Assembly: GCA_019828565.1 (NCBI GenBank)
Contig: JAHDYR010000011.1
Location: 421,314 to 485,313, forward strand
Source of the DNA: Carpediemonas membranifera BICM
Lineage: Eukaryota > Protista > Fornicata
Direction of reading: 5' to 3'
Length of the DNA: 64,000 bases
Under the pieces are notes generated by a model, which saw only the letters and a program-made list of their open reading frames with translations, did not search any database and was not told the DNA's origin. The position numbers were made by a program, and so were the translations under genes. Shown one piece after another: positions 1 to 34,674 of this stretch (the first letter of the stretch is position 1; every line of letters begins with the position of its first letter).

Positions 1-80
1 CCACACGGCATCTTGTCTCATAAAATGACTGTTTATTGCCCTAAATTTGTGCTGCGGCGTGACCGAATCGAAACGAGAAC

Positions 81-1745
81 ATGAAGCCTCACCAAAAGGC
101 AGATACTGTGATTACGGCGGGAGGAATACCAGCAATACTACTCCCCGATGACTTTGAGTCATTTGTTGCGGCCTGTGATGAAGCAGGCATTCGTTCGCGC
201 CCAGCACCACGTTCTCCGTCGCAGTGGACAAGAATGGCTTCAACAGCGAGCTAGATCTGGCCATGGTGCCTCAGCATGCGCTTATGGGGCCGACAGTGGG
301 CGATGGTATCCTTACCAACAAGAGCATCCCCAACGACGCAGTCATTGGCATATACTGCGGCAAGATCATCCCCTCGAGCCCGAACCCGGTGCAGTCACGA
401 CCTACGTGACGAGGCTCAAGCAGCCTAACAACTTTGTTGTTGACTCCGGCCGGCCTCACGTTCGGCTGTCACAAGATCAACGATGGTGCTCGCTTTCTAC
501 AACGTCGTACCGGGGACGGCTCTACGTTAATGTGCAGGTGGGGACCAGAAGAAGCGTCTTCCGTCATTCTTACTTGGCGGATCGCGCTATTGCCAAGTTC
601 GAGTACCTCTCGATCGAGTATGGCGAGCAGTACTGGCGTGGACGCAAGCCCATGGCCCTCTACCCCTGTCTGAGAAGAGCTTGCTGAGGTTGAGTATGAG
701 GAGATCAACGATGTCTTAGACGCCGTTCTTCCTAACCTAAATTGAGATCCCAACAATTCATTGCTTTCAAAAGTTCAAGGGTCCTTCTACCTGGCCCATC
801 ATCACTGGGATCCTCGTGCTTGGCGCCCACATCCCCGATGTCACCCAAAAAGATCTAGAATTTTTCCGGAAAATCGGCTTCCGACAATTTTCATTGATCC
901 CCTGACGCTCGATGGAACTGGATATTGCGTATCAACTGGTTGCTCTGAAGGAGATGAAGTCTATTGAGTCTCTTAAGATCAATTCCATCACGATTCAGAA
1001 GGAAAAGGTCCGGAAAGCTGTCATTCTTGCTTTCGCGCAGTCTCCCGCGGGTAAGAAGTGGGTAACGAGCACACTGAGGCTCTGTGCTGACTCGCTACAG
1101 CGCTTCGATCCAGTACAACGTGCAGAGCATGTTGTTTGGCATGAACTCCAACGCCACATTCAACGAGGAGGCAGCAATAGCGACTCTGCGCGTTCATGAG
1201 AGGCTCGTGACCCCGCTACACCAGTCAGTCTTCGCTAACATGGTCAGGGCCAAGCACAAGACACCGACTCTAGACGATTTCCTCGATACCGCGTGTGTCT
1301 TCCCCGACTTTTTACTGAGTTGGATCGCCTTGCCGCATGGGTGGGTGAGCGCAACCCCAGTGTCTGGGTCATCATGACGGAGGCTCGTATTACTGGCGTT
1401 TTAGATGGTGAGATCTATGAGCCGCTGCTTCGGGCCGTTGCTGACGACGTTGATAGATTCACGTTCGGCAGCCCTGAAAAGTTCCTCCAGTTAACCGACA
1501 CGAGCCTTGACTATGCCGTCGAGAGTGTCCAGATCAAGGACTATGCCAATCGTCGCTGCCTTGTCAAGTGGATCGGGTATCCTGTGCCTGTCACCGTTCC
1601 GCTGACCGATACGTTGCGTGAGCTGGAGGCTGGGGAAACCCTCGGGGTTTGTGGGCGTGCGACGGGAGATAACCTTCTGGGCGGGGTCGTACAACCGGGG
1701 AAAATTCAGAACAATCTTTTTCAGGCGTCGGGAACCCGAGCGTGA
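81..1745 (+). CDS. SET-domain (vSET-like) plus C-terminal chromodomain protein, multiply frameshifted
   Basis: Pieces in ORFs 224, 148, 434, 912, 1084, 1293. SET motifs GDGILTNKSIP..IGIYCG, KINDG and EYLSIEYGEQYW; chromodomain YAVESV..CLVKWIGYP. Confidence 0.65.
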
Positions 1746-1814
1746 CGTTTCTGAGGAGTAAATCAAGATAATATTGTCCAATGAGGCTCTTTTACATCGC
1801 CTTCTAGCTCGATA

Positions 1815-2003
1815 TTGATGTTGTTAGTGATTTTCTAGAGTACAGCACCAGTTTCGGTAATAGGGGACAGACGAGCGCAAACAACTACATGGCTCCGAAC
1901 TACACGCGTCTCGGCGTTGATATTGGTTATTAAAATGCACTGCTGGTAGCATATTGAGGGATTTCGTCATTGTACTCGAATGCACAAGTGTGCAGTTTAT
2001 GCT
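1815..2003 (+). repeat. ~190-bp inverted repeat, copy 1 (partner 8484-8672)
   Basis: ttgatgttgttagtgattttctagagtacagcacc...tgcagtttatgct is the near-exact reverse complement of 8484-8672. Confidence 0.95.
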
Positions 2004-2199
2004 TTTCGGCCAGCCGACGATATTTACTCACCACAGACAGCTGCATACAGGCTGTAGACTAGACATATACAGCAGGCTGAGTAATATAGCACCATACCCC
2101 CTACAAACCGCGAATCAACCCTCAAAGTCACATAAACATAAGCGATACGGTCGGTATATCAATCCTTTTACTCTTACTTCTTCACTGACCATCTCCCTC

Positions 2200-4200
2200 C
2201 TCTTCAGCCCGGGAGGAACCTTTGCGCAGAGTGGCGTGTCCCCTTGTCACTTCGACCGCATACTCGATTTCCCACTCGCGACACTGTTGGGCAAAACACG
2301 CCAGGGCGCTTCCGGCTGTTTTCGTTGGGCTTTAAACGCGACATGTGTCACCTTGCCCTCCTCAGACTTGCTAAAAAAACGTACATGCCGACGACTGGAT
2401 CGATCTTTGGGTCAAAAATCCCGGACAACATGGAGGTATGCAACGGACTTTCCAGTCATTGAGCACCAGGCTTCAACAGCCCACTGAGTTAACCACTTCT
2501 CCTGCATGATTGGCTTACCGATGTTGCTCTCCTCCGTGACAGTGTGTACACTGCACACTTCATGGAAAAAGTTCGTCCCGGAGACCCTTCCTCGGGCCGC
2601 CTGTACCCCCGGAGTGGCCCGCCGGTTCATCTCTATCGCTTCCTTTGTATATCTGCTCGCGGTAGCTGTCCGCCTTCGTCTCCCCGCTGCACACTGCTCT
2701 TCATTCGTCATCGTCTCCCCAGCTCTTGAACGCATGAGGCTCCGTGACGCCCTCGATCATCATGAGGCAGTGTTATACAGCTGCCGTGGGGCAGGGTTTT
2801 GTATCTGACCCACTGCTTGCTCTTTCTCCAGCTGATTGGCGACGCCAACTCTAAACTTGACTTCCCTGCTCCTCATCTGCTTCGAAGCTGGGTCGACGTG
2901 GTCGACCTGGACATATTCAACGTCCGACTCAGCCTCGAATGCCACCTCGTTGTCTGCCTCTTGCTCCTTATCTGCCTCACGCTTTCTCCTCTGACTTCTG
3001 CATTCACCTCTGACTCAGCCATCTCGTCCTCCTGCTCCTCCTCCTCTGCCCTCACCCTCCTCCACTGGCTCTTCTTCCTCCTCTGACTCCTCCTCCGGAG
3101 TCCTCTGGCCTGGCTCTTCGGGCTCAGCCTGGATGCAGGCGTCGCATTTGGTCACGTCCTCCCTCATGTGACTCCACCCTTCCTCTCCTCTGTCACCAGC
3201 TCCCTCGTGTGCTCTCGCGCTTCTTCTCCTCTGTCACCATCTCCTCCCTCGTCTGACTCCTCTGAGTTGTTATCGACATCAGCGATCTTCTGAGGGATTG
3301 TCATGAGGGCCTTGCGCTTCATGTGGATTTCGAGTCGCTCTTCCCCGTACGGCGGGGGTACTCGTTCGTGCTTGGTGTGTGCCCCGACTGGGGTAGGTCG
3401 CGGCGAAACGGCGCGGGTGTCGGGCTGGCACCCATGGAGATGTCAGCTGCGTACCCCACGTCTTGCAGCAGCCTCGTGACGGTCTCCTCCAGCTCGAGTA
3501 CTCTCTTCTGCGCCTTGTGATGGAGCACTCGTGCCTCCATCGGAAGAGATGGGAGGTCTTTGTGAATCCAGTCCTTCATTTCGAGCAGCTTGGATACGCG
3601 AAGGTATCTGTCGAACTGGACGTCGACGTGGTTGTCCCCAGCAACCGCAGCTGACTCTCGAGAGGCGCGAATGCGAAGCTCGCCGTGCACCTCCTTCTGG
3701 ACTCTATGCCACAGGACGTAGTTGCGAGCGTTATTGTCCTCCCCACTCCTTGAGCTTCTGGGCGATCTTTTCTTCGCGCCGGCGCTTGATCGCGCGTTCT
3801 CTAATCTCATCGTCGGACTCGTTGTCAAAGTCCACCTCACTCTCACTGTCGCACAACTCAGAATCGTCGACGCCGCTCTCTTCACCACTGTCCACGCCAC
3901 TCTCATCGTCGACGGGTTCTTTCTTAGCGCTCTCGGCCTTGCCCTTGCCCTTGTCCTTCTCCCTCGGTGTCAATGGCCTCAATAATGGCCTTTACGCGCC
4001 TTGCGCTTCTCCTGGCTATACACGATATCAGCCTGGTTGTCGTCAACCCACTTCGCCAGCGCGCCGGGCTTCTTGAACTTCTTGGTCCGGCGAGTGCCAT
4101 AAACTGCTTCTTCAACTTATCCTGGAGCTCCTCCTTCTCGTCCTTCGTGAGGCGGAATTTCGTGGTGATATGGTTCAGGTTGATTCCTATATAAGCATTG
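2200..4200 (-). CDS. Long acidic/charged hypothetical protein, frameshifted into ORFs 3924, 3731, 3319, 2760, 2412
   Basis: Consecutive - strand ORF fragments with coding-like E/D/K-rich composition; no recognisable domain; ends approximate. Confidence 0.4.
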
Positions 4201-5111
4201 CTATGACTACAAACGCTTCCTGATCACTAGATCGAGCAGTTTCCGTTCATCCAGCAAAACCGCGCGAAGAACAGCACATTTGGCATGATTGGTGGTTGCC
4301 TTGGTGTATGCAGCCAATATCGCATCGTACTGTTCTTGCTAGCGCTCTCAATCCACTTTTAGCAAGTCCATTTTCGGCACTATCAGCAAGAGAGCATAAA
4401 AAAATGGACATAGAGTGCCAAAAGTAATAAACTGAAACCATCCTCACGGCAACTATGTACCTAGGCGGCCCTCAGCACCTCCAATACCTTTCCGTATGTG
4501 CTTTTTTTGTCCGTCCCTACTTCGTCCCACGAACCAGAAAAAGCGCAAAGAGAGGGCTCTTTGAATATTTCCTATAACGGCAGCAGAGCATAAAACACGG
4601 TTCGAAAGGGCTGATTTTTATGCTCTCTTGCCGTTAGTTCAAGCCGAGGCACGCTTTCGGGCGAGCTCCGGCCAAGGGGTCCAGGAGTCAGCTTTTGGGG
4701 AAGGTCTGTGGTGCTATAACGTACCTCGGGACGCACTGTGGAGGCCCCTAGAGTACTCGGTCATGACATGTCAGACCAAGGGTCCCTCAAATCTGGCCCC
4801 CATTCAGGATGCTCCCCCTAAATGTTCCGTTGCAAGCGTCTGACGGGCGTTCTCTGGATACCGACCAAGATGGAGGTCACGTGGATCAACGGACGATAAT
4901 TACGGTATTCTGGCCATGCCTGGTACTCTCAAATCATCTATACTGATCAGTGCTCCATTTATAGTTCATATTGTTTGGTCCTGATGGACTTATAGTTGTT
5001 GATGTTGTTTAGGGATAATTGTTGCTTTAACGATGCTCTGCGCTCGCTTACTGATGTTTCTTAGTGATATGTGCATGCCTACTACGTTAAAGCTGCCAGT
5101 ATTCTTTCTAT

Positions 5112-5156
5112 TCTTAAGTTCGCCATTTCAGTCTCGTTGCGAGCATAAAGTGCACA
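5112..5156 (+). repeat. 45-bp direct repeat of 8454-8498 (TCTCGTTGCGAGCATAAA core)
   Basis: 3 mismatches in 45 bp. Core sub-motifs also at ~6910 (TCTCGTTGCGA) and 4391, 4586, 4616 (AGAGCATAAA, last one inverted). Confidence 0.9.
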
Positions 5157-5407
5157 TTGTGAAGGAAATTGGGTGGTTATATAATGGATACAGGGCAGGA
5201 AAAGGTACACGAATGCCGTCCTGAGGTTTGGCATGGGATACTGATCTCATACGTCAAAAAAATGGGCGGTGGTATTCGAATTTCAGAATTTCGGCATGTC
5301 CGAATTCCGAGGCAAGCGGGTAGGGTGTACAAAACCTGGTCTGGGTCCCTACTGGAGCTAATAGATAACAGTATCACCGTGTATTCGGTTTTCAGAAATA
5401 TAACTTG

Positions 5408-5607
5408 TGTTGGTATTGCTATTTCAGAATTACTTCCAGTACCGGAGATTGTCTTAGAATTTGGATGTTCATGACTACTTTAAAATTTTAAAAAGTTCCC
5501 ATGAACTCCACTCCAGCTCAGGATTGCGGATCTGAGCCAAGTTTAGGTCGAATCCAAGTATTTGATAATTTTTGTATGTACGAAATTCTGAAATTGCAAT
5601 ACCAACA
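5408..5607. repeat. 24-bp inverted repeat pair (5408-5431 / 5584-5607) just upstream of the YR-like gene
   Basis: tgttggtattgctatttcagaatt vs aattctgaaattgcaataccaaca (1 mismatch); partial copies at 5271-5293 and 5381-5399. Confidence 0.85.
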
Positions 5608-5621
5608 GAAAAACTCGTGTT

Positions 5622-6823
5622 ATGGAGGTTCTAGCTGCAAATAACGACGATATTGTTAAGCGCTGGTCTGATAGAGGTTCAGTGAAGACGCGTAGTGTGT
5701 ACAAGAAGCACCTGGAGGACGTTTTTGGCCAGCATTTGCCAGGAAACAGGCGCTGAAATGCAGAAGGGCATCGAGATTGTCCGAAGCGACAACGTTACGA
5801 CTTATTTGGCGCATTATTTCGCTACAAAGACGCCTGCTATGGCTAAGAGGATCGTTTCGGCTGTTCAGTCTTTCCGGAACTTCGACTTGCCACATCCCGC
5901 GAAGCCGTTGTCCTGGAAAGAGGAGGAAGAGGTGTCGCCTGCATCAGTTGAGAGTCTCCCCCAGCCCGTATGGCGCCATTGCCATTCTGCTCAACCAGAC
6001 GGGCTGGGAGTATTCGTATCTCCAAGGTAATCTCCCCGATGCGATAGACCTTACCTCGTGCCCGAGCTGGATGGGCTTTGGCACGCTCAAATCGGGATTC
6101 CCGCAGACCAGTGCTGTATCGGAGGCGCTCAAGGTTCAGGGGTTGACGGTTCGCATGCTTCGCTTTGCGCAGCGGATCGACGTGTCCACCGATAGGATGC
6201 AGTCTATCGGCACGCTAGAGCGCCGCGGCAGACCGCAGGAGAAGCCCTCAGAAGGTCATTAAGGACAAGCGCATCAGCCTGACCGATGAGCAGTTCAGGC
6301 ACCAGTTGGCGTCCAGTCACTTAACGACCACGCGGCGCCCAACGATCCTCGATCTCAACCCGGAGATCCGAAGCTCTGCCGACCTGGTGCCGCCGATGCT
6401 CGATGACTGGCTTTTACAACAGGCTCAAGGCCAGAATGATCGAGCTTCACGATACTAAGAAGAAAGAGAGGCAAAAGCGAGGCTGACAAGGAGGCGGAGT
6501 TCGGCTCGCCGACTCGCGAGACAGAGATGCCAGAGGGCGAGAGAGAGGGCGATACTGACGAGGAGGCGGTGTCCGACGAGCCAGCTTACCAGGCAGAGTG
6601 GATGCACTACGAGGTGCCAGCTCGCGAGGAGAGCGCCTTTGGTGAGGAGGTGGACTTATGCAAGAGTGCCGATGAGGAACCAAAGATCGACCACGACGAG
6701 CATGGCGGGGAGGTGGCGGGCAGAGATGGTGATGGGGAGATTCAAGAGAACGTGATTGATGAGGAGCGCTCAGAGAGCGATACTGCCGACAGTATCGTCT
6801 TTTTCCTTCATCTGACATTGTAA
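5622..6823 (+). CDS. Degenerate tyrosine-recombinase-like protein (XerD-like core-binding domain, reduced catalytic domain) with acidic tail, frameshifted
   Basis: SVKTRSVYKKHL and DNVTTYLAHYF..KRIVSAVQSFRNF resemble the SAM-like core-binding domain. AIAILLNQTGWEYSYL resembles LLxxTGxRxxEL and GLTVRMLRF resembles HxLRH. Confidence 0.5.
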
Positions 6824-6979
6824 AGAGGAAGAGTTTATGATTGGAGCATAGCTGATGTCCATAAACACCATTCATAAGCCAGTCCTGTCTTGTTTTCCAC
6901 TGCTACTTCTCTCGTTGCGACGCACAGCTAGCTGTCGCGAAATGCACTTTAAGACCAATTTTCACACAGCTACCTGTGC

Positions 6980-8280
6980 ATGGTGTTCGAGCTAGATAGC
7001 GACAAGCTGGAGCGACTTACTTCCTTACCTGGTAATAGTAGACAATATCTGCACGACTTTGAACCTGAAAAGCTGCAGGTCGTGATCAAAGTTGATGAGC
7101 ATTATGATATGGAGGTTCCCACCCTGCTAGCGCTCAAGGACAGTCCGCATGTCCTCCCTGTCGTCGATACAGGTTTTTGTCGACCGTGATCCAGCCTTCA
7201 TGGCTCCTTTGGTCAACTGTACCCCCTTCGCTGACATCTGCCAGGCTCACTCCAGCGTGCAGTTCCGCTATGTTTCGCATCTGCTGCAGGCAGTATGCTA
7301 CATGCATGACCACGGGGTTGTCCATTGCGATATTAAGCCAGACAACTTCCTCTTCAGCAAGAGTCAGAAGGGATACCTCATTGATTTTTGGGTCTGCAAT
7401 GAGGAAGCCGGCTAATGGCGACGACAGGTGGGCCATACAACTGAGATTCGCATCCGAGTATCGCGGCACCCATGGATATTTGCCCCCCAGAGCTTTTCTA
7501 CGAGTACCTTGTCTCGCGCTCAGTGATTCCTGCTGCACGCGACACCTCCAAGCTCGCGCGCATGACGGCAGGGGCTCTTTCCGTCACTTCTTATGTCGTG
7601 ACACCTGCATCGGACATTTACTCTTGCGGTGTAGTCATTTTTGATGCTCTTTTACGGTCTCCCCAAGTCCCCCTTTGCCGCGAAGGTGACTGACATGGGT
7701 GCAAACATGGCGCAGATCGACAACAAGAAGAAGAAGAAGATGCTGAAGCTTGGTAGCTTGCTGAACTGGTGCCAATTCTATGGTGGGCAGTTGCAGTTGT
7801 CACCTCAGGCACAGACACATTTCAAAGATTGCCTCGAGTGTGTCAACGTGAACTCTGAGCTCCCGATTCGCGGCACCACGCCACCTACTTGTCTCAGCCT
7901 GTACGACCTGGCAATGCAGATGCTCCACTTCGACCCCTGCGAAGCGTCCCACTGCTGCCGAATGTCTTGACAAGCTCAAGGTCATCATGCGCGTGCATGA
8001 ATGCGTCGCCAAGCCGAGTCCGCTTCTGTTAGATGATACAGAAGAGGTCACCCTGTCTGCAGCTCAGCGAAAGAGACTGACCGACTGCTGTCAGCGAGGG
8101 TTTGAGGGTCAAGTCTTCTATCGGCGCTGCATAGTGTGTGGTAGAGACCTTCATGGACGCGAGAACGTCAGCTGTGACACATGCCACAAGGGATACAGGC
8201 AGGTGAGCACCAATAAGTGCGCAAAAGGTGTGCGCGGAAGACTGCACAGGCAGTTTATTGCGATGATTGAGCGGACGTAA
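6980..8280 (+). CDS. Ser/Thr protein kinase with C-terminal Cys-rich (PHD-like) finger, frameshifted
   Basis: VVIK, HCDIKPDNFLF, LIDF(G), GTHGYLPPE, SDIYSCGVV, QMLHFDP..RPTAAECL; C-terminal CIVC..CDTC. Confidence 0.8.
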
Positions 8281-8483
8281 AAGAGATTGATACTTTCTGT
8301 GATGCAGGAATGAGATCAATGCTGCTGACAGGTCTCGAGATGGCAGAGGTGCTGGAGAAGAGAGAGCAGAAAAGGCATCAGAAGTAAATGAACGAGGTAA
8401 ATTCCAGTTCGCCGGAGATGATATCCTTCCTCGTACGCGGCATGTGTCTTGGGTCTTAAGTTCGCCATTTTAATCTCGTTGCG

Positions 8484-8672
8484 AGCATAAAATGCACACT
8501 TGTGCATTCGAGTACAATGACGAAATCCCTCAATATGCTACCAGCAGTGCATTTAATAACCAATATCAACGCCGAAACGCGTGTAGTTCGGAGCCATGTA
8601 GTTGTTTGCGCTCGTTTGTCCCCCTATTACCGAAACTGGTGCTGTACTCTAGAAAATCACTAACAACATCAA
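8484..8672 (-). repeat. ~190-bp inverted repeat, copy 2 (partner 1815-2003)
   Basis: Reverse complement of 1815-2003. Confidence 0.95.
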
Positions 8673-8996
8673 CTCCTTTTTCTCCGCAATGCAGATGAGA
8701 ATGCCTATTCTCGCGATCTATAACTACCAATCATGTTTTCATTCTTTACTCATACTTGCCACAGATGCACACATCCAGTGAGATCTCTCCTTCCTCATGG
8801 ACATCGATGTCTAACCATTGCCCGTCAAACACGAGCCCTACCTGCCTCAACACCTTCTTCCATAGACCATCCACTTGACCTTCAAACAGAGGTAACAGTT
8901 TCTGACAGTCTCCCTCGTCCAATGTTCCAGTGCCCTCGCTCCGAATACGGATCCAGTGTTTGGCGTCCTTGCAGCAGCGATGAACGCGCATTGTCT

Positions 8997-11304
8997 TCAG
9001 ACGTATTTGGTGGGGGAACGTCTGTTGACTGTCGCCCATACGAGACGACGCCACGGAGGAATCGGTAAAAACAACTCGACCTGCTCCTTCAATATCGTTC
9101 TCTCAAGGACCATCTGGTTGCGCCTTAAGTGTACTCTACTTTCCTGATTGCCAATAAAGTCGCGCTCGAATGACTCCTCAATAATCCGGCCAAGTGGGAC
9201 TCGGATTTTTGACTGAATCTCCGGCAACACAGCAACTCGCGCTAAGCCATGAAGTGTGTCGATGGAGGGAGCCTTCTTGGCTACCTTAGACGGCGGCCGG
9301 ATTGGAATAGACTCCGACACGGTGCTGGTCGTGCTCAGACACATTGTCAGTGAAAAGAGGTGAACAAGCAACGCTGTCAGTCGATGCCAGGTGATAATAT
9401 CATCTGTGGCCTCCTCGTGAGAGTAATAATGCTCTTGCAGGTAGGCAACGAGTCTGAAAAAGTGGCTGAACGGGGGAGGGAATGCCATGTAGAGACCGTT
9501 TCCAATTGACGCGATCATCTTCCTCCCCTTCACTTGCTCATTACAGCCAGTCGTGCGACTGGGAGGTTCAAACTTAGCCAGCCTGGCGAGGTCAGCGTTT
9601 CTGGCCTTCTTGGTCTTGATTTCCTCCGGGGTAGAGTCTGGGTCGACCTCAATTGGCTTGAACATCCGACAAATGTTGTGTATCAAGGAGACGAAGTCAT
9701 GACTGAGGTGCATGATCGGCGGGACAAGGAAGATTTTGCCCCTATCGAGAGTTGGGTCATCCGAGTTCTCGAATAGGCTGGGCATGATGCACTTATTCTT
9801 CTTGTTGTAGAACGACCCCCACTTCTTCTCTCTATCCAGGACTGTCTTGTCCTCAACAGACATCTTCTTCGCATACATCACGTCTGCAATCGTGTTTCGT
9901 GGGGTGAGACCGAATGGGCTCCAGGCCTTGTTGTCAGCATGTACCGAGCTGAATGGAGAGGGATAGCTGCCGCCAATCAAGGTTCCACAGACTTTTGACA
10001 TCGCTGGGTGGTCTGCGATGAACATAACGCGAGTGACACGGCACAGGAGACCGGTATTTCTCACCTCAAGTGACTCGCGATGGGTACTCTCGACTGAGCG
10101 CTCGATGAAGTCGAAGAATTCTCCAATGCGCTTCTCTGGTCCGTTGTACTCGAGTATGCGGAAGGGTGGTGTTCCGCCTGACGGGAAGACTTTGCCGGAG
10201 ACATCGATAAACCGAACCTTCACAGATGTAGTCAACCCTCGCCATCCATCGACCCAGACGAGAAGATCAAGCGGCACTGTCTGAGTCTCTTCAGCTTGAG
10301 TCTGCGCTGTCAACTGCTTGCCCACGTTCTTACGAGCAGCCCTTGACCTCTCGAGATCGATAGGCGAAGCCACCGCCTGGCGATAGTACCGCATGAGGTC
10401 AAACTCAGCGTGTTGCACATGGGAATACCTGCCGCTAGACTGGAGACGCGGGTTGAGACCGGCTCTCTTCATCACGTCATTATGTGCAGTTCGCTTCATT
10501 GCCGATTCGTAGAAGATGCACACCGTCGTACCTCTGAGCACTTCAGTGTTATAGTCGTCGCCGTCGAATGTAGCGTTGACTTGTTCGAGGTCTGCGTCGA
10601 CGTGGGTAATCAGGTCGAGGTCATACTCGCGGTGATCCTTGTCCGTCCTCTTTGCTCGTGTCTCTTGAGTGATCGCCATGGGTATGTAGCCCTTTAGGGC
10701 CTTTTTCAAGTTCCTATGCGACTTGACAATGGTCTCAACGTCTGCGATGTTCCGAATGCTGCACTGAAGCGACTTGACTTGGTTTGTGACCTGATTGATG
10801 TTGATAATGTCAAGGTTGAGTCTCTGTGCAAGGGCTTGCATGATGTGAATCTCGTCATTGACTGCATTCACGCCGATCGTGATGGCCCTGAGCTCGTTGG
10901 ACACCTGCAGAAGACGTTCAGTGTCAGCAATACGCTTACGTAGACGAGCATTCTCTGCCTCGAGGCCGAAGCTATCAGAATGCAGAACATATGCACCAAC
11001 GTAAAGGTGACTGGGACCAGAGCGGTGTGCCTTCTTCTCCCTTTGAGATGCTAGTGGATGATGGCGCTGGGTAGAGATTGCTAGAAATAGCCTCACGCGA
11101 TACAGCGCCGATATTGATTAGTTCCTGCGCGATGCGGGCTAGCTCGAGCCTTTGCTGGTGTTTGGAGGTATCAAATCCGTTAATACGGCGATCCACTGCG
11201 TCAATCGAGAGCCAGACGCTGCAAAGGATGGTATTGATGTCATCAGTGCCCTCCGGAGCATAGATAGATCCGTTAGACAGTTTCCACTTCAGTTGAAGCG
11301 CCAT
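8997..11304 (-). CDS. RAG1/Transib/Chapaev(CMC)-like DDE transposase (ORF 8997-11096; likely N-terminus in ORF 10975-11304 via frameshift)
   Basis: Ordered motifs LLVWVDGW (D1), MFIADHPAMSKVCG..GGSYPSPFS (D2 plus degenerate CxxC), VPPIMH, and TLHGL..VPLGRIIEESFE (E; compare Transib TVHK..LPIGQLSEEAQE). N-terminal coiled coil. Confidence 0.7.
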
Positions 11305-11343
11305 CTGTCAGTCGCTCTTTCAAGAATTCTAAAGATCCTAAAA

Positions 11344-12609
11344 ATGCGTGACTTCGAGAAGATCATCTAATGCCAGCCACGGAACTAGAGATGAAGCGTG
11401 GAAATGAAGGAACTACTCCGGACACCCGAGAGACGAACTCTCAGAAACGCAAGCCGATGGTCAGGGTGGAATGACGCCGCAAAGAGCGAATGCAGGTCGG
11501 CTCTCATGATTGGTATGCTCAAGGCATTCTTTTTGCATCACCGTTGATGTGTTTGGAACGGATATGACTGGTCTATCTGTCCGTAAGGTGGCGAATGCCT
11601 ACAATCACATCATCTCGGTGTACTTGCAGCCCTGCCACCCTGATCCGACATTCTTTGATGGTATCAAGTCCCTCACGGCTGTATCGCAGGGTAGGCTTGT
11701 CATTGGGCATGTTAAGGAGTGGGCAACCCAGTCTTGCCACTGCAACATCGGCATTTCTGATCAGGCTCCTTCGAGAGTGTTTCATAACCTTTCTCGGGCC
11801 CCCAACCCGGTGCGATCGGAGCTTCTGACCGCGATGAAGAAGATTTTCACGAGAGTTGGCCTGGACGTCCCCCAGAATTTTTGATTCGCGTCCTCTGTCC
11901 CTTAATCTGGTGGACCTTTCGGCACCCGACATATTTACTGGTCGGACGAAGACGTTTTTCAAGACAGCAGAAATCCCCCATTCCGTGCCGCAAGTGAAGC
12001 AGGAGGTGAAGGTTGACCCCGTTCGACCCTCTGAGTCTATCTCTAAGCGTAACGTCATGCTACTCGATGACGTCCATCGCATGACACAGCGCATGTCGGA
12101 AGATCTCTCTCAGCTCAAAAGAACGGCCGGTAACCGCTGATTCAGACTCTGACGATGATGGAGAGAACCTCCTTGACTTGCAGAAGAGGATGCTTGCCTT
12201 CTGTTGCGGCCATTGCCACAGCTTGGACTGGGTTGGCAATCTCAACACGTCAAAGTTTGTCTCATGTGGAGAGTGCGGCAGGAACTTTCATGACAATTCC
12301 GTTTGCGTGCCTGCTCGTCCGGAGAAATGTTCAAAGACTGCCAACTGGACGAAAGAAGCCAACAGAAAGAAGTCCTCGTGGAAGTTCACATGCCAGGCTT
12401 GTGTCCAGGAGAAGACTTGTTTCGCATGCCAGAAGAACGCCTCGGTATATCATTGTCGGATGTGTGGGCACTGGTTCTGTGGTAACAAGGGCTGTATGGG
12501 CACCACTGCCGTGAAGGTCGTCATTGACGGCGTGAATATTCCCAAGATCCGTCTTTGTGACGATTGCCTTGAGAACTTCAAGTCGGTGGTTCAACAGTCG
12601 GAGCAGTAA
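11344..12609 (+). CDS. PHD-finger plus second Cys-rich zinc-finger protein, frameshifted (ORFs 11510, 11856, 12178); start uncertain
   Basis: CGHC..FVSCGECGRNFHDNSVC..WKFTCQAC (C4HC3) followed by CFAC..CRMC..FC..C..CDDC; acidic DSDSDDDGE hinge before the PHD. Confidence 0.7.
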
Positions 12610-12874
12610 AGATTGAATCTTTTCAAACATATTTTCATGAAGATAGATCCAATGAAACTATGTACCATGAGCCCGATTGCTCAGTGATTATGTGATAATC
12701 CTGTGTGACCCAGGACAGCGTGCTCCTGGAATCAACAGGGCACAAAACACCCTGCGTATTCCGGTAGCACACCGTTCTGACTCATACGTCCGTCTCTGGT
12801 TGTCGTATACAGGTCTATTTACGTGTTTGGCGATGGCGCTCCCTTAAATCTGCTTGAACGGCGTGTCGTGGCTG

Positions 12875-13138
12875 TCAGTATGCTGCAAATGTCGCAGCGA
12901 GAAAGGAGTCACCAATCGCGTTCAGCTTTCTTGTTTCTCGCCTGATACTGCTCGTAATATCGTTCAAGCGTGAATCTATGAAGTAATGGGACTGAATGGC
13001 CTCTATTGCGTCAATTTCTTGCGTAATCGTTGTTGAATGGCCTAGAATAGATGTTGCAGCTGCTTCCAGCTCCTGTTGCATGCTAAATGCTGTGTTTTTG
13101 GACAATTGGTCGTGTTCAGGCAGATTTTTTTCGTGCAA
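12875..13138 (-). CDS. Small hypothetical ORF
   Basis: 87-aa ORF with helical composition; no motif. Confidence 0.25.
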   Translation of the reverse strand: MHEKNLPEHDQLSKNTAFSMQQELEAAATSILGHSTTITQEIDAIEAIQSHYFIDSRLNDITSSIRRETRKLNAIGDSFLAATFAAY

Positions 13139-13462
13139 AGTGCAGGCTAATACGCGCCCTTAAACTGTGGGATCAGCCGCTGGGTAAATATACTGAGAAA
13201 AACCATATAGCTGAGTTCACTGTCTTGTGCTGAATACGGTGGCGCCATTTATTTCTCTGAATCGCTAAGTTTTGTCAGCGTTGACCGCGCACGACCGGTC
13301 GTCCTTACGCGATGACACCCAGCCCATCTTGTAGGTCGGGTGGCCATACCTCGCGGCCTTGCTTGCTTTTCTTTGACGAGCAATATTCCCTGAGTAATAG
13401 CCTCTCCTTTTCTTCAATTCGACTCTAGCCAAGTCAAAAAAACAAGAAATCGACCATATCTC

Positions 13463-13566
13463 AAAATCTAACAGGTAGATTCACTCTGAAAGTGATTATG
13501 CGCATATGTACCTCCTTTCAACTACTCACATAATCACTATCGTAGTGAATCTACCTGTTAGATTTT
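13463..13566. repeat. Subterminal hairpin: 38-bp inverted arms, 28-bp spacer
   Basis: aaaatctaacaggtagattcact-ctgaa-agtgattatg (13463-13500) vs cataatcact-atcgt-agtgaatctacctgttagatttt (13529-13566); 3 mismatches. Confidence 0.93.
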
Positions 13567-13749
13567 CTGTTATTGTCCATTTTATCGTTTCGTCTTAACC
13601 TGCACGGCGAAATGCTCAAACCAGGCAAGGAGTCAGAGCCAGAGCTTCTTTCCATGCTCTAAGTACATCATATGGACTCTCAAGAAGACCTTCGTTTATC
13701 TCTAAATAGCTTAAATTTAATGAATACTTCATTTCTGAGCAAGAAATTG

Positions 13750-13809
13750 TAGATTATCTAGCGTTTTGAGGTCGAAGATAATCTAGGGTTTAGCAAAGAT
13801 AATCTAGGG
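13750..13809. repeat. Terminal/subterminal AGATAATCTAG repeats at the putative right end of the DNA element
   Basis: aagataatctaggg at 13775-13788 and 13796-13809; near-palindromic tagattatctag at 13750-13761. Confidence 0.75.
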
Positions 13810-14074
13810 ATGTTGACAGCATGTTGCCGCCGCCAACGGAAGCGACGAGGAAGAAGAGCTCCTACGCATCGGAATGGAGCACGAGAGCGACGAACCAGAT
13901 CAAGAGATGCATGAGTAACGAGCCATACCAAAGCAGTGGAGGGAAGAGTGCAGAGTCTAAAGGGATGTGTATATATAGCACGTTAGTGTAGGACTAGGTG
14001 AAGTGAAGGCGCCGGAATAGGTGCAGCGTTGGAGCCCGCCAGAAGGGCTGTACTGGCGCCAATGCCCGGGTGAC

Positions 14075-14290
14075 TTTTCTTTTCTTAAAACCCCTGTTCC
14101 CCGCAGGGACCGGGGGGCGGGTAAGAGGCAGTTGGAACGCCATCGAGGACCCGCCTGTCCGGCAGGCTGGAACTCCAGCCTTGGGAGGGGCGCCGAAAGG
14201 AGTCGCTCCCACCTATGCGTAGTTAGGTAACGATGCTGCCAATGTGCGAGGCCAGAAGCGCTATAGAGACTGGCACGAAAGTCCCGACAA
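14075..14290 (+). other. Conserved multi-hairpin inter-ORF RNA structure (IRES-like candidate), LINE-A copy
   Basis: Pyrimidine tract then hairpins CCCTG/CAGGG, CCGG/CCGG, GGCTGG/CCAGCC, GGGAG/CTCCC, an AGGTAA stem and a GGCACGAA loop; same order as 24358-24560. Confidence 0.55.
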
Positions 14291-14645
14291 GCACCGCGAG
14301 GGCGCGGCCAGTGAAAGGGGTGGTACACCCTAGGTCAGCTCCAAGAGGGAACCTGGGCCACGTCTGGGGACTCTGGAGGAAGCAGCCGTTCTGGCCAAGC
14401 ACCCCATGTGAATGGCGCATGCTTCTGGGTCCTGGAGAAATATCAAGGGCAAAGAAGACGCCTACCCGGGCCGCCCACCAACAACCCACAGGGCGGGAAG
14501 CGGCCCACCCAACGTGCTAAACAACGACGACATAGGCGCTCACCCATTGGGAAGGCAACTATGCAGATGCTAAACCCCAACAACAAGATGAAAGTGTGCA
14601 GGTAGTGCAGAATAAGGAGTGCAGGTTAAGGCAGTAACAACCTGA

Positions 14646-17600
14646 ATGCGAATAGTCTCCCTTAACAGCCAAGGACACTTAACGGGCAATGAAGACTACA
14701 GCGGATCTATAGCGGTAGCGCTTCGCAAGCACACGAGCCCGGACGCCCTCCTCTTGCAGGAAACATTCAGGTACGGTAACTCCGTAGTCCCCTGTTGGGC
14801 GGACCTACAATACGCATGTGCAGGGCACGCCAAACCCATCAAGGCTCGAAAGGGCAAGATTAACCTAGGCGTAGCCACGGTGATCAGCCCACATTCACAG
14901 GCAACCTGGGATGTAGGAGTATCTGACGGCACGAACCCCCGAGTTCAAGTTAGCATCCTCGAAACCTCAAGGGCTATCGCAGTCATCAACATATACGCCC
15001 CTCCAAGTGACCGCAGCGCAGCGGAGCTAGACCGCTTCGACCAACAGCTGGAAAACATCGTCAGAGAGTACCACGGCTTCGAGATAATCATCATGGGGGA
15101 CTGGAACCGTGACCCGCGGAGCCTGCGCCATGCCACCAGCGCCACACTACAGCGAAACAATCTAGACCTAGTTTTCCCCTCGTCTCACACATACATGAGT
15201 GGGAATACCACCTCGACGCTGGATTATGCAGCTGTATCTGGGGGGATCACGAGGGCCAAAGCTAGAGTCATTGACAAAGCTGAGATGGGGCATTGGGGCT
15301 CCCCCCATAGGGCAGTGGAGCTAACCTGGGACGAACCGCATTGGAAGAAACAACCGGCCAAACCCAAGCTGGAAATCCCAGGAACAACCACCTGGAATGT
15401 CCTCCCAGAGCGCAACGGGGGAAAGGGCAAGGGAATGGCCGCAACCCGATGTGGAGCTCCATGTAGATACAATCGAGTACCAAATACGGGAACTCTTATC
15501 GGTGGGATTTCAAACTTCCGCTAGGAACGTCAGACCAGGGAGATCGCAAAAAAGGATCCCGGAGAACGTATGGAAGCAACTCATCCTAGCCCGATGGAAC
15601 AAAGCGGGGGCCGCGGAAATCAAGCGGACCCTGAACAACGAGCTCCAGAAGTCATGGAAAAGCTTCAAGGAGGAGTGGACGCAGCAGGTGGAAAACAGCG
15701 CAAGGGCAGGGTATAAGACCACCAAGAAGGTCATAGCAAACCAGGTCCACAGGTTCTGGAACGAGAAACAACACGCAGGGCTACCGGCGATGCTCAGAGG
15801 AAAGAGGTCGATCTTAACAAGGGAAAACGAGATAGCTAGGGAGCTGCAGAGGCAATACGCCCAAGTCAGTAGTGGCATAGCACCTAGTTGGGACCAGATC
15901 CCGGCGGCCCAAACAACTGATCAACCCCCCACGGAGGAGGAGGTCACGGCCACCATCAAGTCCCTGAAGAAATCATCGGCAGGAGGCCCGGATGGTATCA
16001 CGGGCGAATGTCTGAGAGACCTCCCCCAGGCGGCCTACAGGGCAATCACATGCCTCTTCCAGAAAGTATACGAGTCTGGGGAACTACCCACCACGTGGAA
16101 GTACGCCTCCATCTCCCCGATACACAAAGTAGGGAAAGATAAGCTACTGCCAGGATCCTACCGACCCATCTCACTCACCCCCTCCTCTACCGAGCATATG
16201 GGAAGGTACTCAAATGGAGGCTCAAACCAACAGTTGAGAGGCACACCCCCAGAGAGCAGATCGGCTTCATGAAGGGAAAGACAGTCATAGACCACATCGC
16301 CCTCCTAACCCAACTGCACCAAGAAGGAGACCGGACCAGCGTGCTGCTCGACATTGCAAAGGCGTACGACACGGTTCCCAGGGACATCCTAGTCAGCAAG
16401 CTGATCAATATGGGTGTACACCCCCACCTAGTCAGAGCAGTACAAAGCACAATGGAGAGGACCTACATTGCGGTAAGGGGATCCGACCTATGGTCCGAAA
16501 CGAACCTAGGAGTCAAGCAAGGTTGCGTGGTCGCCCCCACCCTATTCATACTATTTACGGCCAACTGGATTAGCCAGGCGTCACTCAGAATACAGTACGG
16601 CGAGATACCAGACCCGAAGCTTCCCCCCACCCACCACAGACCCGGGAATGGCATCATAGCAATGTTCGTAGACGATACGAGCATCTCGGCAAAGAAAGAA
16701 AATGATGCGGAGTCCCTCACCGCCGCAATGGTGGAAGTGATAGTGGCACACAAGCTGTGTATCAGCCCAGGAAAGAACATCGTCATAAGTACCAATCCAA
16801 ATGCGGAAGTGCGAATTCAAGGGGAGGCCACCCGAGCAGCGGAGTCAGGCCGATACTTGGGACTCTGGATAGCAAGTGGCCCTCATCCGCTCAGCGCATG
16901 CATCGCAAAAGAAAAGAGAACAGTCGAACAAGTACATCGCCCTCGCCCGGAGAGTGGGATGGACTAAAGGCTCCACGCCCGCGGCTGTCTCCGAGTCCAT
17001 CCTCCGCACCTTCCTATGGCCAAAGATCGAATTCGGAATCGAAATCTGGGGCCAAGTCCCAGGAGGCAGAAGGCTTTGGAACGACTGGCGAGGACTCATG
17101 GCGGGAACCGGACCCGGTGGAGGGGGTGTCGCCCGCCTGATGATGGGATGGATGTGCTGGGAAGCGGACATGGGTGTAAGAGCGGTTAGAATCCGCGAAT
17201 CGGCCCGGGACCCTGACCGCCCATCGCCCCTAGCGGACTTCGACTGGGGAAGAGCGAACCCCAAGTCCGTTATCGGAAAGCTGAACAAGTGGGCAGACAA
17301 CGTACTAGATCTGGCCCCTAGCGACCTTCACGGACCCAGACCCAGAGCAATAGCCGGGGGATGGAAGATGACAGCACGAGACATCGCCACCAAAGGTAGC
17401 CGAACAGCCAAGGCGGCCGCCGAAGTGCTAGCTGCGGAGGCAATGCAAACAATGGCAGGCGGGAGAGCACCCAAGAAACCAAAGATTATCAGAGGGGAGA
17501 TGATGCTCAGGAGGGAGCTGAAGAGGGTAGTTGCAACAGCCTCCAACACGCTCCCCTCCGCTAGCAACAGCCACACAACTCGAGGAGCCGCGCTCATCAT

Positions 17601-18018
17601 AAGCAGGAGGTACCCTGGGCAGGAAATGCTCTGCGACCGTATCCAAAGAATATGCCCGATATGCACACTCGCAGCCGAACGCGAATTGATCAACTACCTC
17701 CAACTATACCCCCCCCAGGCGCAGGCGCTAGTGGCAGTAGCCGGGTGGCTGGAAGACCAACCGCTAGGAACACAAAGCCACATCATAGCGGAGTGCCAGG
17801 GCGTCGGCCGCCCAAGTGGGTGGGAGCAGTGCTGGGAAGCTGCGGCAACACACACCATGGCAAGTAGGCTGCGGCACGGCCCAGATGGGGAGTGGTATAA
17901 CTCCAGGGCCATATTGGAGCTCCACTGGCTACTGCAACAGGAGGATGAAACAGTGAAGGAGGGTCTATTATGCGGGAAAAAGGCCCTCATGAACCTCAGA
18001 ACAGGCCCAGACCCCTAG
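14646..18018 (+). CDS. LINE-A ORF2: APE endonuclease, reverse transcriptase, C-terminal zinc finger (3 frameshifts)
   Basis: SLNSQG, LLQET, INIYAP, MGDWN, LDY, SPH; GPDGI, SYRPISL, LDIAKAYD, GVKQG, MFVDD, RYLGLW; CPIC..HIIAEC. Confidence 0.92.
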
Positions 18019-18990
18019 GAGGAAAGCCCTGGGTGAAGACAAGGCACAGGGCGGAACATTCCTGGAACCGGCGGGAGGTGTTTTCCCCCCACATGTTCCG
18101 GTAGCGCCAGGCGGAGGGAAGGCTGCAAAGGACCACTAAGGGACAACCGCATACAACAAGCACGAAATAGGGAAGGCCTGGCAAAACAGCTGGGCCAGTA
18201 GGGCGCAAGCGTCCGGACAAGCAGTCCGGCGCATCCCTCCGGCGCGCAAGGGGGTACCCCCTCCCCACACAGTGGGGGCGCACCAGGAGGATGATGCATG
18301 GCAGACTGGCGGAGGTACTGGATGACGCAAGAAGCTACCCACTCCGTCGGTAACCTGCCGGGAAGGCAGGGCCATCCTGATGTGGCCCGGCGCCTAGCCA
18401 GGAACACTGGAAGACGTGGCAACCGCCCCTGGGAGCTCCCCCGATAATGGGAACCTGGAGTGAAATCGGACAGCGCTAGATGAGCCCGAACGCAGCCGGC
18501 AAGTCCGTGGAAGTCTACCTACGCGGCGTCGGTGGGTTCCTAACCCGGCCCAGCTGGTACGGCGAACTCTAGACCCGACCCCGCCCTGGCGGGTGCCTGA
18601 AACATGGCGAGCGGGTCGAGGAAACTCCAGGACCTCCCTAGGGGACCCGGGGGAGAGGAGAAACGTACGGAAGGTCCCCTGACAGCAGCGTGCAGGGCAA
18701 GGCTTTGTAGGTGCCAGGCAGACCTGGGACCCAAAGGGCCCCTAAGAGTAAGACCTGGGTTAGCCTAACTTTGGGGGTATTAATGTGGCCATGTATAGGA
18801 TCCCTCTAGCGTACCAGCTAGGCCTTGACGGCCGTTGTTCACGCCCTCTTAGGAAGTGTTAGGTGTGCTCTGTAGAGGTACCAACACGCTTAGGCGTTCC
18901 TCGAAGGGGTGACACAAACTGTGACATTCAGCTTACACAGCAGGACGAGTAGCAGGACACATTAAATTCTTTCTTCTTCTTTCTTCTTCT

Positions 18991-20511
18991 GTTGCCCTGT
19001 TCATCGAAAGAGATGTCGCCTCTCGTCAGGCCGAAGATCTCGCCTCCCCGGCTGACTGAGATGAATGTAAGTGCAGCGAACAGCGCTACCTGGAACGCTT
19101 TCGGTGAGGAGCGTCGCCTGTCGACGACCTTGCGGACCTGGGCTCTGGTCACCGGTAGTGCGCCTCCTGTTAGGCCGTCGAGAGATGCTACGTTCTCCGC
19201 ACTCTTGATGATCTGCCTGGCTTCTGGCGGAGGTCGCCAGTTGGAGACGAGTGGAGCCGCTTGACAGATCCAGTAGCCCTTTCTGTGGATACTCTGCGGG
19301 CCAGTGGTCTCGCCCTCGGCGAGGAGGAATGCTCTGAGTTGTTCGGCGTCGGAGAGGGCTGCCTGTCGCGATAGGACGAACTTAGAGACCCAGCCAGCCG
19401 CTGAGCGGCGCGATGACTCGTTTCGGAAGTGAGATAGCCTGTCGTGGCGGAGGAGTTCGTCGAACGGGTCTTGACGATCATCGCAATCATTCTGATCTTT
19501 CCTTGCCTCTCGGTCCAGGATAGCTCCGTGTTGAGCATGTGCGAGGAGTGGACTCTGAGATACATCTTGTGTTGGGACAGCCGTTTCAGCGCTCTGACTT
19601 CGGGTGAGTTGAGATCGGGGAAGAGGAGTATTGCCGCTGACCTCCACGTCCGAGGGGACGTAGTCGGGGTCTGAGGCGTCCGAATCTTCTCCAGACGACG
19701 ATGTGCCGCTCCCAAGAGCGCTGTCGGCGGAGCCAGATAGATCCTGGCGCCGGTCCAGGAGCGCTGGAAGCCGTGATCGTCGAGGGACCAAGCTTTCCTG
19801 ACGAATCCTGGCAGTGCGAGCTTCTTGTCCGGAGATGCAGTGACGTCTATCTCCGCCGGACCCCACTTGGCCATTATCGTCTCGAGTACCTCGCGGGGTG
19901 AGTGCCAATCGAGCTTTGCGAATCTCGACAGCCGGTCCGCCTGGACATTGAGGTGCCCTGCGATATGGAAGCAGTGAATATCGACATTCTTCGTGTTCGC
20001 CGTGGTGAAGATATCCTGCAGGAGTCGAATGGCCGTGTCGGCGAGACATGGGGAGCCCTGGCGGTTGACCCATGCGATGGCCGCGGTGTTGTCCGAAAAG
20101 ATAGCTAGTTGGGTCCTGGTGCGCTGGGTTGGGGTGAGCTTGATAGCCTGGCCAATCGCGTAGAGCTCCTTGACTCCGATATGAGAGTCTCGGAACTCGG
20201 GAGGAAAGCGGCCTTGAGCCGAGCGGCCCTGGTCGCCGTTGAATAGGCAGGCGCCCCACGCGAAGGAGGACGCGTCGGATGCGACCGAGAGCTGGAGTTC
20301 GTCCTTGATCTCCCAGTCTGCCCTGGCCTGAGCGAAGGGTCTGGATGGACGATCTCTGAGCAGCGCTAGCCAGCTGTTGAGCTGGCGACGCATCTGCTGC
20401 GAGATGTGAAGCGTCGGGGCGGGATGTAGGGCCTGGAGTGATCTGAGCTGGAGCCTGGCGAACTGTGTCGTACTTGCGAAGAACGAGAGGCGGCCTAGTA
20501 GGCGTTGCCAC
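18991..20511 (-). CDS. DIRS tyrosine recombinase frame (N-terminal part, cut by LINE-A insertion)
   Basis: ALPVTRAQV...ALFAALTFISVSRGGEIFGLTRGDISF (first catalytic Arg box); overlaps the RT/RH frame as is typical of DIRS. Confidence 0.8.
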
Positions 20512-20629
20512 TCGGTTGCATCGATCCTGCCGGCCCTGAGGGCCTGCTCGATTGATGTTGCATAGCGATCGGCTCTGTCCTTGGAAATCTGCAGTGTCTC
20601 GGCGGCTGTGTTGATGGTGACTCCTAGGT
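19188..20629 (-). CDS. DIRS pol C-terminal part: RT thumb, RNase H, Dam-like methyltransferase domain
   Basis: LLGRLSF; SDASSFAWGA, HIGVKELYAI, FSDN, HIAGHLNVQADRLSR; WGPAEIDVTAS..SW..IYLAPP. Confidence 0.9.
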
Positions 20630-20630
20630 G

Positions 20631-24560: not shown

Positions 24561-24628
24561 TGACGGGACAAGGGCAGATTGCAGGGAATTTCCGAAAATT
24601 CGCAGGATAGGAAAGACGGAGTACAAGA

Positions 24629-27600: not shown

Positions 27601-28076
27601 TCAGCCCGTCTCCATCATCAGCGGAAAGGGGAGAAGGCCCAGAGCGAGCGCTGGCGGACCTGGCGATGGGTGAGGAACTCAAACACAAGATACAAAGGAG
27701 GTGCCCCCTGTGCACAAAGGAGAGCGAGATAGAGTTACTGTGGCAAATAGCGAGAGAGCAGCCAAACCAAGCCAGGAAGCAGGCACTAATCAGGGAGTGG
27801 GTAAGGGGTCAGCCGCTGGGATCGGCGGCCCACATTATGTGTGAGTGCCCAGAGGTTGAAAGAGGAGATGACTGGGAAAAGATATGGAAGACAGCTAAGG
27901 AGAGGACCAGGGAATTGCAAGTCAGAAGAGGCCCGAATGGGAGGTGGTATGAGAAGAGGCCAATCTTAGAGGTGCAACAACTAGTGTTAACAGGGTCGGA
28001 AGAGATATGGGAAGGACTGCGAGCTGGGCTGAGAGCCCTGGCAAAGGTCTATGATAGCTATAGAATAGATGGATAG
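24629..28076 (+). CDS. LINE-B ORF2: APE endonuclease, reverse transcriptase, zinc finger (one frameshift near 26908)
   Basis: SLNTEG, CIQETW, INVYGP, IGDWN, PDF, SAH; APGPD, SYRPISL, QAGF, LDIEKAYD, GVKQG, MFVDD, KYLGLW; CPLC..HIMCEC. Confidence 0.95.
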
Positions 28077-28850
28077 ATAAGGAACACCACATCCAGAAAG
28101 GGGGCAGGGAAGCATAGACTCTGGGATCAAGGGGAGACCCCCATGTTTCCCAGGGAGAGGGCAGGGCCAGGGACAGAGGAAATCCATCAATTGGATGGTT
28201 GCACCACTCGCGGTGAACCTAAGGAAACTGCAGGGACTGAGCATGGGATACGGGGGACATGACGTCCCCGCCGCCCTTGTGAACGATAGAGGGACGCTGG
28301 GAAGTGTAGCACAAGAGAACTATCATAAGGGGTACTAGGCCTTGCAGATCTAGAGTCTGTGTTAGCCCTAGCCCACGCCGCCTAACAGGGGGTAGATGAG
28401 AGGGACTTAGTTGCTTTCTCCGCCCACGGGTAGGCCACTTAACAGGGTCGTGGGGGCACTGAACAGGGAATCTGGAAAGAGGAGAGGGTGCCATGCTTGA
28501 ACGACCCCGTAGGGACTGCAGGGAATCAGGGAGTGCTATAGAGAAGGTCTTGCAGGACAAACCTGCCTGTGGAAGCACCGAGGACAGACCCCCAGGCTCC
28601 CTGGAAGCTGCCGGGTTTACAGGGAGACAGGAAAGCGCTCAGCGCACGGAGATGGCGAAGGCCTATGGGGGGAAGTGAAATCGGGAGTGAGCGGAAGCAG
28701 TAGCACCGAATCGCTCGTTGGACGCAGCTGACAAGTTCAATCGCAGGGAGGAGGCAGCGCCCCGGGGAACTCGGCTCCAGTAATAAGGGAGATCAGCCTA
28801 AGTAACCGGGGCCCGATACCAGGCACCATAAATTTTCCTTCTTTCTTTCT

Positions 28851-29574: not shown

Positions 29575-29600
29575 CGACGGGAATTGATGAACAGAGGTTG

Positions 29601-30155: not shown

Positions 30156-30237
30156 TCTGTCCGCATAAACTGCGTGACTCGCCTGACCGGCGAAACACCT
30201 TTTGCCCGGAGTGAGGCTATCGCATCGCCCTCCGCTC

Positions 30238-30324
30238 TTTGGCGTATAAAGCGCTGTGGATGGTACTTCATTTAGATTAAATACACACACTAAATACACA
30301 TCAACTGATTACGAAATCACAACA
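30238..30324 (-). repeat. 3' LTR (87 bp)
   Basis: Identical to 34675-34761; TGTTGTG...CGCCAAA on the - strand. Confidence 0.97.
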
Positions 30325-34658: not shown

Positions 34659-34674
34659 AGCTCAAATTGATCAA

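Follow-up and report, generated by a model that had tools for sequence, protein, structure and literature searches.

RAG1 is the enzyme that cuts antibody genes. RAG1-like (RAGL) and Transib relatives are already known from protists (PMC9435367) and, as stated in PMC12730594, all members of the CMCT clade (EnSpm/CACTA, Mirage, Chapaev, Transib, Plavaka, ESTA, plus Lanisha) have two motifs in common, C(2)C and H(3-4)H. In mouse RAG1, C727, C730, H937 and H942 make up a single zinc site that falls between D708 and E962, with the cysteines at +19 and +22 from D708 and the histidines at -25 and -20 from E962, and this site hosts destabilising human disease mutations (PMC4914335). The C2H2 zinc site is described as stabilising domain folding (PMC7204232). 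RAG1, Transib and hAT enzymes nick DNA and form a hairpin on the flank, as described in PMC5499845. Here we report a window, meaning the whole analysed stretch of 64,000 nucleotides from Carpediemonas membranifera BICM (contig JAHDYR010000011.1), containing a gene that probably encodes the cut-and-paste transposase of an undescribed multi-copy transposon lineage, on the grounds of a conserved Asp-Asp-Glu triad and a predicted RAG1/Transib fold, with non-ligand residues at the four positions that likely match the zinc ligands of RAG1. No description of a zinc-less RAG1/Transib lineage was found in searches of the open literature, and 10.64898/2026.08.26.747230 and 10.1101/2021.09.26.461848 gave nothing on zinc loss.

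The gene is interrupted in the window (Table 1; residue numbering follows the intact paralogue P0004). The original prediction had described a 699-aa open frame, whereas the frame at 8997-11117 measures 706 aa from stop to stop, the ATG at 11304 is out of frame with it, and the real gene, which extends to 8746, encodes 851 aa and carries five single-base indels relative to P0004 (near 11043, 9470, 9462, 9074 and 9019) along with 11 amino-acid differences. Because these frameshifts break the window copy, the last ~95 residues were missed by the first reading. A 25-nt intron near 10996-10972 that would join the frames was considered and rejected, as P0001 and P0004 read through that stretch. The neighbouring zinc-finger gene has four single-base insertions in the window copy and no amino-acid changes relative to P0032. 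Across both genes, 9 of 9 indels fall in runs of at least three bases, which represent 11% of positions, and the sequence pattern makes long-read consensus (assembly) error in a repeat the likely source of the frameshifts in the transposase copy. True slippage also prefers homopolymers, so the window's copy may be truly broken.

Table 1 Features of the transposase locus, in window coordinates
Feature	Position	Strand	Basis or remark
Non-coding repeat 3' of transposase gene	8454..8672		Possible element-end sequence
Transposase-like gene, ~851 codons, predicted single exon	8746..11304	-	Comparison with P0001/P0004
C-terminal domain with His774, Cys776, Cys845 and Cys847, candidate zinc site	8761..8982	-	Family alignment and model
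Catalytic Glu, E713 (putative RAG1 E962 equivalent)	9165..9167	-	E in 14/14 rows
Degenerate H(3-4)H site, Leu687 ... Val692	9228..9245	-	Family alignment
Invariant Cys587 of RTTGC motif	9543..9545	-	C in 14/14 rows
His532 of PPIMH (putative RAG1 H795 equivalent, from chain order)	9708..9710	-	H in 14/14 rows
Degenerate C(2)C site, Ser449-Pro-Phe-Ser452	9948..9959	-	Sequence and family alignment
Catalytic Asp 2, D431 (putative RAG1 D708 equivalent)	10011..10013	-	D in 13/13 rows
Catalytic Asp 1, D352 (putative RAG1 D600 equivalent)	10248..10250	-	D in 13/13 rows covering it
Cys/His-rich zinc-finger gene, 411 aa, head-to-head with transposase	11370..12609	+	Possible second gene of element
Strong hairpin past zinc-finger gene	13447..13582		54-nt arms, 85% complementary

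A protein search returned P0001 (98%, 851 aa) and P0002 (64%), each with Carpediemonas membranifera as its species label, and a word-based profile search found only the two closest proteins. Searching 1.84 billion representatives gave 18 matches with E ≤ 0.001, of which 16 reached E ≤ 1e-10; the same species label is carried by 10 of these 16. We aligned 14 non-redundant family members, whose core identity ranges from 24 to 72% (median, 29%). The fragment P0016 was excluded for columns before ~460. The counts and the tree omit P0011 and P0024, whose ends are garbled, P0022, which covers the N-terminus only, and near-duplicates; P0005 (57 aa) was dropped as unrelated. Searches of Pfam and PDB sequences did not connect the family at the sequence level with RAG1, with Transib or with a Pfam transposase, Transposase_21 and Plavaka included; no reference transposase was returned by the sequence searches, and identity to RAG1 is 9-12%. 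Rfam, searched over positions 1-15000, yielded nothing informative, and neither did phages, viral contigs or prokaryote genomes, with a best E value of 3e-3 among viral structures.

Structure prediction gave a clearer signal. The family-based model of P0004, a metal-free model built on a 20-row alignment, reached a mean pLDDT of 84 and a pTM of 0.75, compared with a pLDDT of only 38 for a single-sequence prediction. Foldseek returned 48 matches to this model at E ≤ 1e-3 (best, 3e-9); among the matches listed, ranks 1-47 were all RAG1, BbRAGL or HzTransib, and the next unrelated row stood at E 5e-3. An RNase H-fold DDE match, whose absence had been named beforehand as refuting the prediction, was thus found with both RAG1 and HzTransib. 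Structure comparison (VIA) aligned 443 residues with RAG1 (Z 14.1, rmsd 6.1), 400 with HzTransib (6pqx; Z 13.3, rmsd 6.0) and 431 with BbRAGL (Z 12.4, rmsd 6.1), scores to be read with care since a Z near 13 can be unspecific for largely helical models. A Foldseek-independent search of 48,161 chains recovered the same top group, and a language-model search placed RAG1 clusters at 0.93. Backed by the Foldseek E values and by coverage of ~440 residues, the predicted fold of P0004 is that of a RAG1/Transib-like DDE transposase, with model residues ~125-755 corresponding to ~460-1008 of the RAG1 core (compared with RAG1 and BbRAG1L/ProtoRAG structures 6xnx, 6oem, 4wwx and 6b40).

The catalytic motifs that had been called intact, D (VDG), D (ADH), PIMH and E (EESFE), are all present where they were reported and lie in invariant family columns, with VDG at 10253, ADH at 10016, PIMH at 9719 and EESFE at 9179 on the minus strand. 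In total, 35 of 709 well-filled columns of the family alignment are invariant, including D431, H532, E713, C776, C845 and C847. As in RAG1, there is a histidine at the H795-equivalent place and a glutamate three residues ahead of the catalytic one, and DDE spacing is similar (D2 to E, 282 here versus 254 in RAG1). A DDE triad in an RNase H fold, a criterion of the CMCT clade, is present in the family, according to the model and the alignment. Separately, Cys587 lies 55 residues after His532, and in RAG1 the residue governing transposition, R848, follows H795 by 53 (PMC7204232); by position, Cys587 and R848 are possibly equivalent.

Between the second Asp and the Glu, the window's protein departs from RAG1. 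It has Ser449 and Ser452 at +18 and +21 from D431 and Leu687 and Val692 at -26 and -21 from E713, so that all four candidate ligand positions are at most one residue off the RAG1 spacing. These residues likely correspond to the four zinc ligands of RAG1, an equivalence based on spacing and the family alignment because structure comparison gave aligned ranges and not residue pairs. The CxxC position after the second Asp had been read as S-P-F-S, correctly (at 9959). The first His of an HxxxxH pair had been thought to remain (in TLHGLARV, at 9257), and here the first reading erred: this residue, His685, is two residues off the family His column 687, where the window's protein has Leu, and column 685 holds Tyr, Phe, Lys or Gln in 12 of 14 rows, with His only in the two closest subfamilies. 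As aligned, the loss in the window's protein is more complete than first read and extends to all four positions.

The same holds across the family. Six of 13 rows have the first Cys of C(2)C, one has the second and none has both; at the H(3-4)H place, His is found at column 687 in 8 of 14 rows and at 691 or 692 in none, with the second-His position occupied by Val, Ala or Thr in all 14. Every row that has the first Cys, six of 13, has the first His as well (Fisher p 0.02 over rows that are not independent), and because each of these six relatives keeps both residues, a partial zinc site is possible in them. In a tree of 16 rows, P0004, P0006 and P0010 form a clade (99/99) that is joined by P0034 and P0016 (90/99), and wherever a member of this group covers the sites, all four ligands are missing. 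The proposed course is stepwise, in which the second Cys and second His would have gone almost family-wide and the first pair would have been lost as well in the branch of the window's gene; as the tree has no known outgroup, the order of ligand loss is unrooted.

These counts bear on whether the window simply contains a dead Transib-like copy undergoing random decay. Its five frameshifts fit that idea, but the same substitutions recur in intact paralogues of 840-857 aa and in relatives at 24-40% identity, with catalytic residues conserved, which refutes decay at the family level and makes it barely credible overall. Close homologues retaining the cysteines, the other outcome named beforehand as refuting, were not found either. 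Since no relative checked for the same substitutions has CxxC (0 of 13 rows) or H(3-4)H (0 of 14), the ligand loss is not the decay of a single copy; judged from these alignments, it is real, lineage-wide and goes beyond what was first read. The original prediction of a coordinated loss in place of random decay therefore stands at the family level, whereas its phrase 'Zn-free lineage' is too strong, because the first Cys persists together with the first His in 6 of 13 relatives and a C-terminal His/Cys/Cys/Cys set is conserved.

The half-sites also raise the question of whether the zinc site was rebuilt and not lost, with Cys587, His535, Cys439 or an Asp/Glu after the family His completing a metal site. 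The invariance of Cys587, the paired retention of the first Cys and first His, and the presence of His535 in 13 of 19 rows would all suit such a site. We nevertheless regard it as unlikely, given that P0004, P0006, P0010 and P0034 have neither the first Cys nor the first His while keeping all of their catalytic residues, and that CxxC is absent anywhere between the second Asp and the Glu in all 14 aligned rows.

A further explanation is that the lineage never had a full zinc site and branches between CMCT and the P/hAT/MULE type, in which the insertion is all-helical and has no such zinc. P element transposase (6p5a) shares an RNase H core with a helical insertion and scores close to RAG1 (Z 12.1, rmsd 5.7, 344 residues aligned by VIA; Z 12.1, rmsd 5.4, 342 aligned in the Foldseek-independent search; Z 13-14 for RAG1), and no family member has the full motif. 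However, RAG1 aligns over ~100 more residues than the P element does, only RAG and Transib entries pass E 1e-3 among the Foldseek matches listed, the P element being absent from them, and Pfam found no THAP domain in the transposase. Half-sites at RAG1 spacing in six members moreover look vestigial, and we consider a primitive absence very improbable. Loss of the site from a RAG1/Transib-like transposase remains our preferred reading.

The part of the protein that the first reading did not cover contains a second set of conserved Cys and His residues. This C-terminal domain of ~95 residues lies past the last two frameshifts, outside the frame first described, and the model shows it well ordered, with pLDDT 82-93 across the greater part of 770-850. 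Conservation is nearly complete for His774 (12 of 13 rows), Cys776 (13 of 13), Cys845 (12 of 12) and Cys847 (12 of 12), and the four residues probably bind zinc. According to PMC10629977, invertebrate RAG1L carries a C-terminal CX2CX3GHX4C tail, and in BbRAG1L a CCGHC tail grips the element ends; the H-x-C ... C-x-C pattern of P0004 and its relatives is unlike that tail.

Compared with RAG1, the family is without equivalents of C727, C730, H937 and H942, lacks a Cys-rich RING N-terminus (a single Cys falls within the first 180 residues) and carries a ferredoxin/ACT-like insertion. The inserted domain, ferredoxin/ACT/RRM-like with middling scores (Z 6-7.8), precedes the RNase H core at residues ~215-295 (~10420-10660, minus strand). 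Unlike RAGL/ProtoRAG, the window's protein has, judged by spacing, none of the four zinc-coordinating residues of ZnB, and its gene has no RAG2L with kelch core and PHD in view next to it, its neighbour being the zinc-finger gene. Transib (HzTransib, 6pqx and 6pqn) agrees in fold and in having a single-exon gene, but the protein is ~350 residues longer than the solved chains, both zinc motifs are absent from its family, and CAC-type terminal repeats with a 5-bp duplication were not found around the window's gene. With the CMCT clade the family shares a DDE core with a long insertion, a conserved middle His, Cys/His vestiges at the motif positions in six relatives and, perhaps, a second gene, but it completes neither C(2)C nor H(3-4)H. 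As it failed these two motif tests, we did not file the transposase as a strict Transib, RAG1L or CMCT member.

We found 20 family proteins labelled Carpediemonas membranifera on 12 contigs that differ in length, many of the proteins being truncated. Three contigs hold the three listed copies of subfamily A and four hold the five of subfamily B. P0001 and P0004 are identical except for 3 of 851 residues, and the one species accommodates at least eight divergent groups, two of which sit two locus tags apart on one contig. Such a multi-copy family suggests a mobile element, and recent transposition is favoured because near-identical copies occur on different contigs and the window's gene has retrotransposon-like neighbours. 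Neither the window nor one 3.6-kb locus showed terminal inverted repeats accompanied by a target-site duplication around the gene, and for this reason we infer mobility from copy number only; the pairs recovered as candidate ends were at chance level. For the 5'-CA..TG-3' ends and 2-5 bp target-site duplication of the CMCT clade, the DNA of one copy offered 32 pairs that start with CA and agree at 10 or more of 12 positions, and none extended well with a duplication; repeats starting with CACAA at 1983, 5161 and 8504 do not form a gene-bracketing arrangement and have no duplication. Within the repeat 3' of the gene, 8484-8672 (~190 bp) matches 1815-2003 in inverted orientation at 97% and 8454-8504 (~50 bp) matches 5112-5161 directly at 92%, but the repeat and its matches in the window do not bracket the transposase gene.

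Segmental duplication could give the same copy pattern, and the copies might then be host-retained nucleases, a domesticated multigene family with no mobile element at all. That neither ends nor a target-site duplication turned up, that at least eight divergent groups share one species, two of them as close neighbours, and that the zinc-finger neighbour recurs by locus tag are all compatible with domestication. We judge it improbable in view of the near-identical copies on different contigs, the many truncated members and a region full of retrotransposon-like frames, and we retain the transposon reading.

Other sequence features near the gene were recorded in their own right. The 9-mer TTTATGCTC has 18 matches with one mismatch allowed (9.85 expected; reached by 3 of 100 shuffles), and five exact matches cluster in 4392-8491. 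Hairpins or inverted repeats occur in the window at 4575-4636, 5405-5610 and 13447-13582, and at 526-580 and 3532-3582 of locus L001 from metagenomes, which encodes P0018; four hairpins near transposase loci that were folded had z of -5 to -10. The one at L001 3532-3582, at a contig end, looks like a bidirectional terminator. At L001 867-3498 (plus strand), the P0018 relative is seemingly split near 1340-1390, and an upstream frame looks by eye like P0013's N-terminus.

The zinc-finger neighbour may travel with the transposase. P0031, which is near-identical to the zinc-finger protein, has a locus tag adjoining that of P0004 on one contig, so that the pair occurs at least twice; for P0032, no transposase was seen at an adjacent tag among the proteins listed. 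The zinc-finger protein has a FYVE match of 25.1 bits, below the 27.8 cut-off, and a PHD-like pattern by eye, while the full protein had no Pfam match and an atlas search returned nothing above cut-off. As there was no kelch match, we did not file it as RAG2L. A wider interpretation, which we put forward only tentatively, is that of an undescribed, recently active protist transposon superfamily in the RAG1/Transib clan, whose transposase would do without the zinc site regarded as universal in the clan, would have acquired another zinc domain at its C-terminus, and would be accompanied by a head-to-head zinc-finger chromatin-reader gene, in independent parallel to the PHD finger of RAG2.

If the enzyme works as its relatives do in RAG1, Transib and hAT biochemistry (PMC5499845), a dimer would bind the element ends, D352, D431 and E713 would hold two metal ions, and one strand would be nicked; the flanking DNA would then close into a hairpin, and a target would receive the ends. 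Packing among the substituted residues would stabilise the helical insertion domain in place of zinc. The C-terminal His/Cys/Cys/Cys domain would bind zinc and may grip the ends, for which the unrelated CCGHC tail of BbRAG1L offers a comparison (PMC10629977). A natural series of half-sites and sites with no ligands, all with catalytic residues intact, makes the role of zinc and its replacement testable. Motif-based screens miss this deep branch of the protist relatives of RAG1, which bears on the origin of RAG1.

The remainder of the window was surveyed more briefly. Gene pieces broken by frameshifts, in which SET-like and chromo-like motifs were recognised by eye, occupy 1-1740 (plus strand), where Pfam found nothing in three pieces, and are followed by the 190-bp repeat. 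At 6950-8280 (plus strand), tail-to-tail with the transposase gene, lie a protein-kinase gene with frameshifts (Pkinase, E 4e-11) and a short frame for a zinc ribbon (DZR_2, E 1e-3), which are possibly cargo. LINE-like elements with several frames are present at 14646-18018 and 24611-28076 (plus strand), with an endonuclease domain confirmed in the first and reverse transcriptase recognised by eye, and DIRS-like or chromodomain Gypsy-like frames were noted by eye at 18928-20789, 28793-30308 and 30309-34661 (all minus strand). Frameshifts seem confined to this repeat-rich half of the window, and the host genes after 35758 are long, intact frames.
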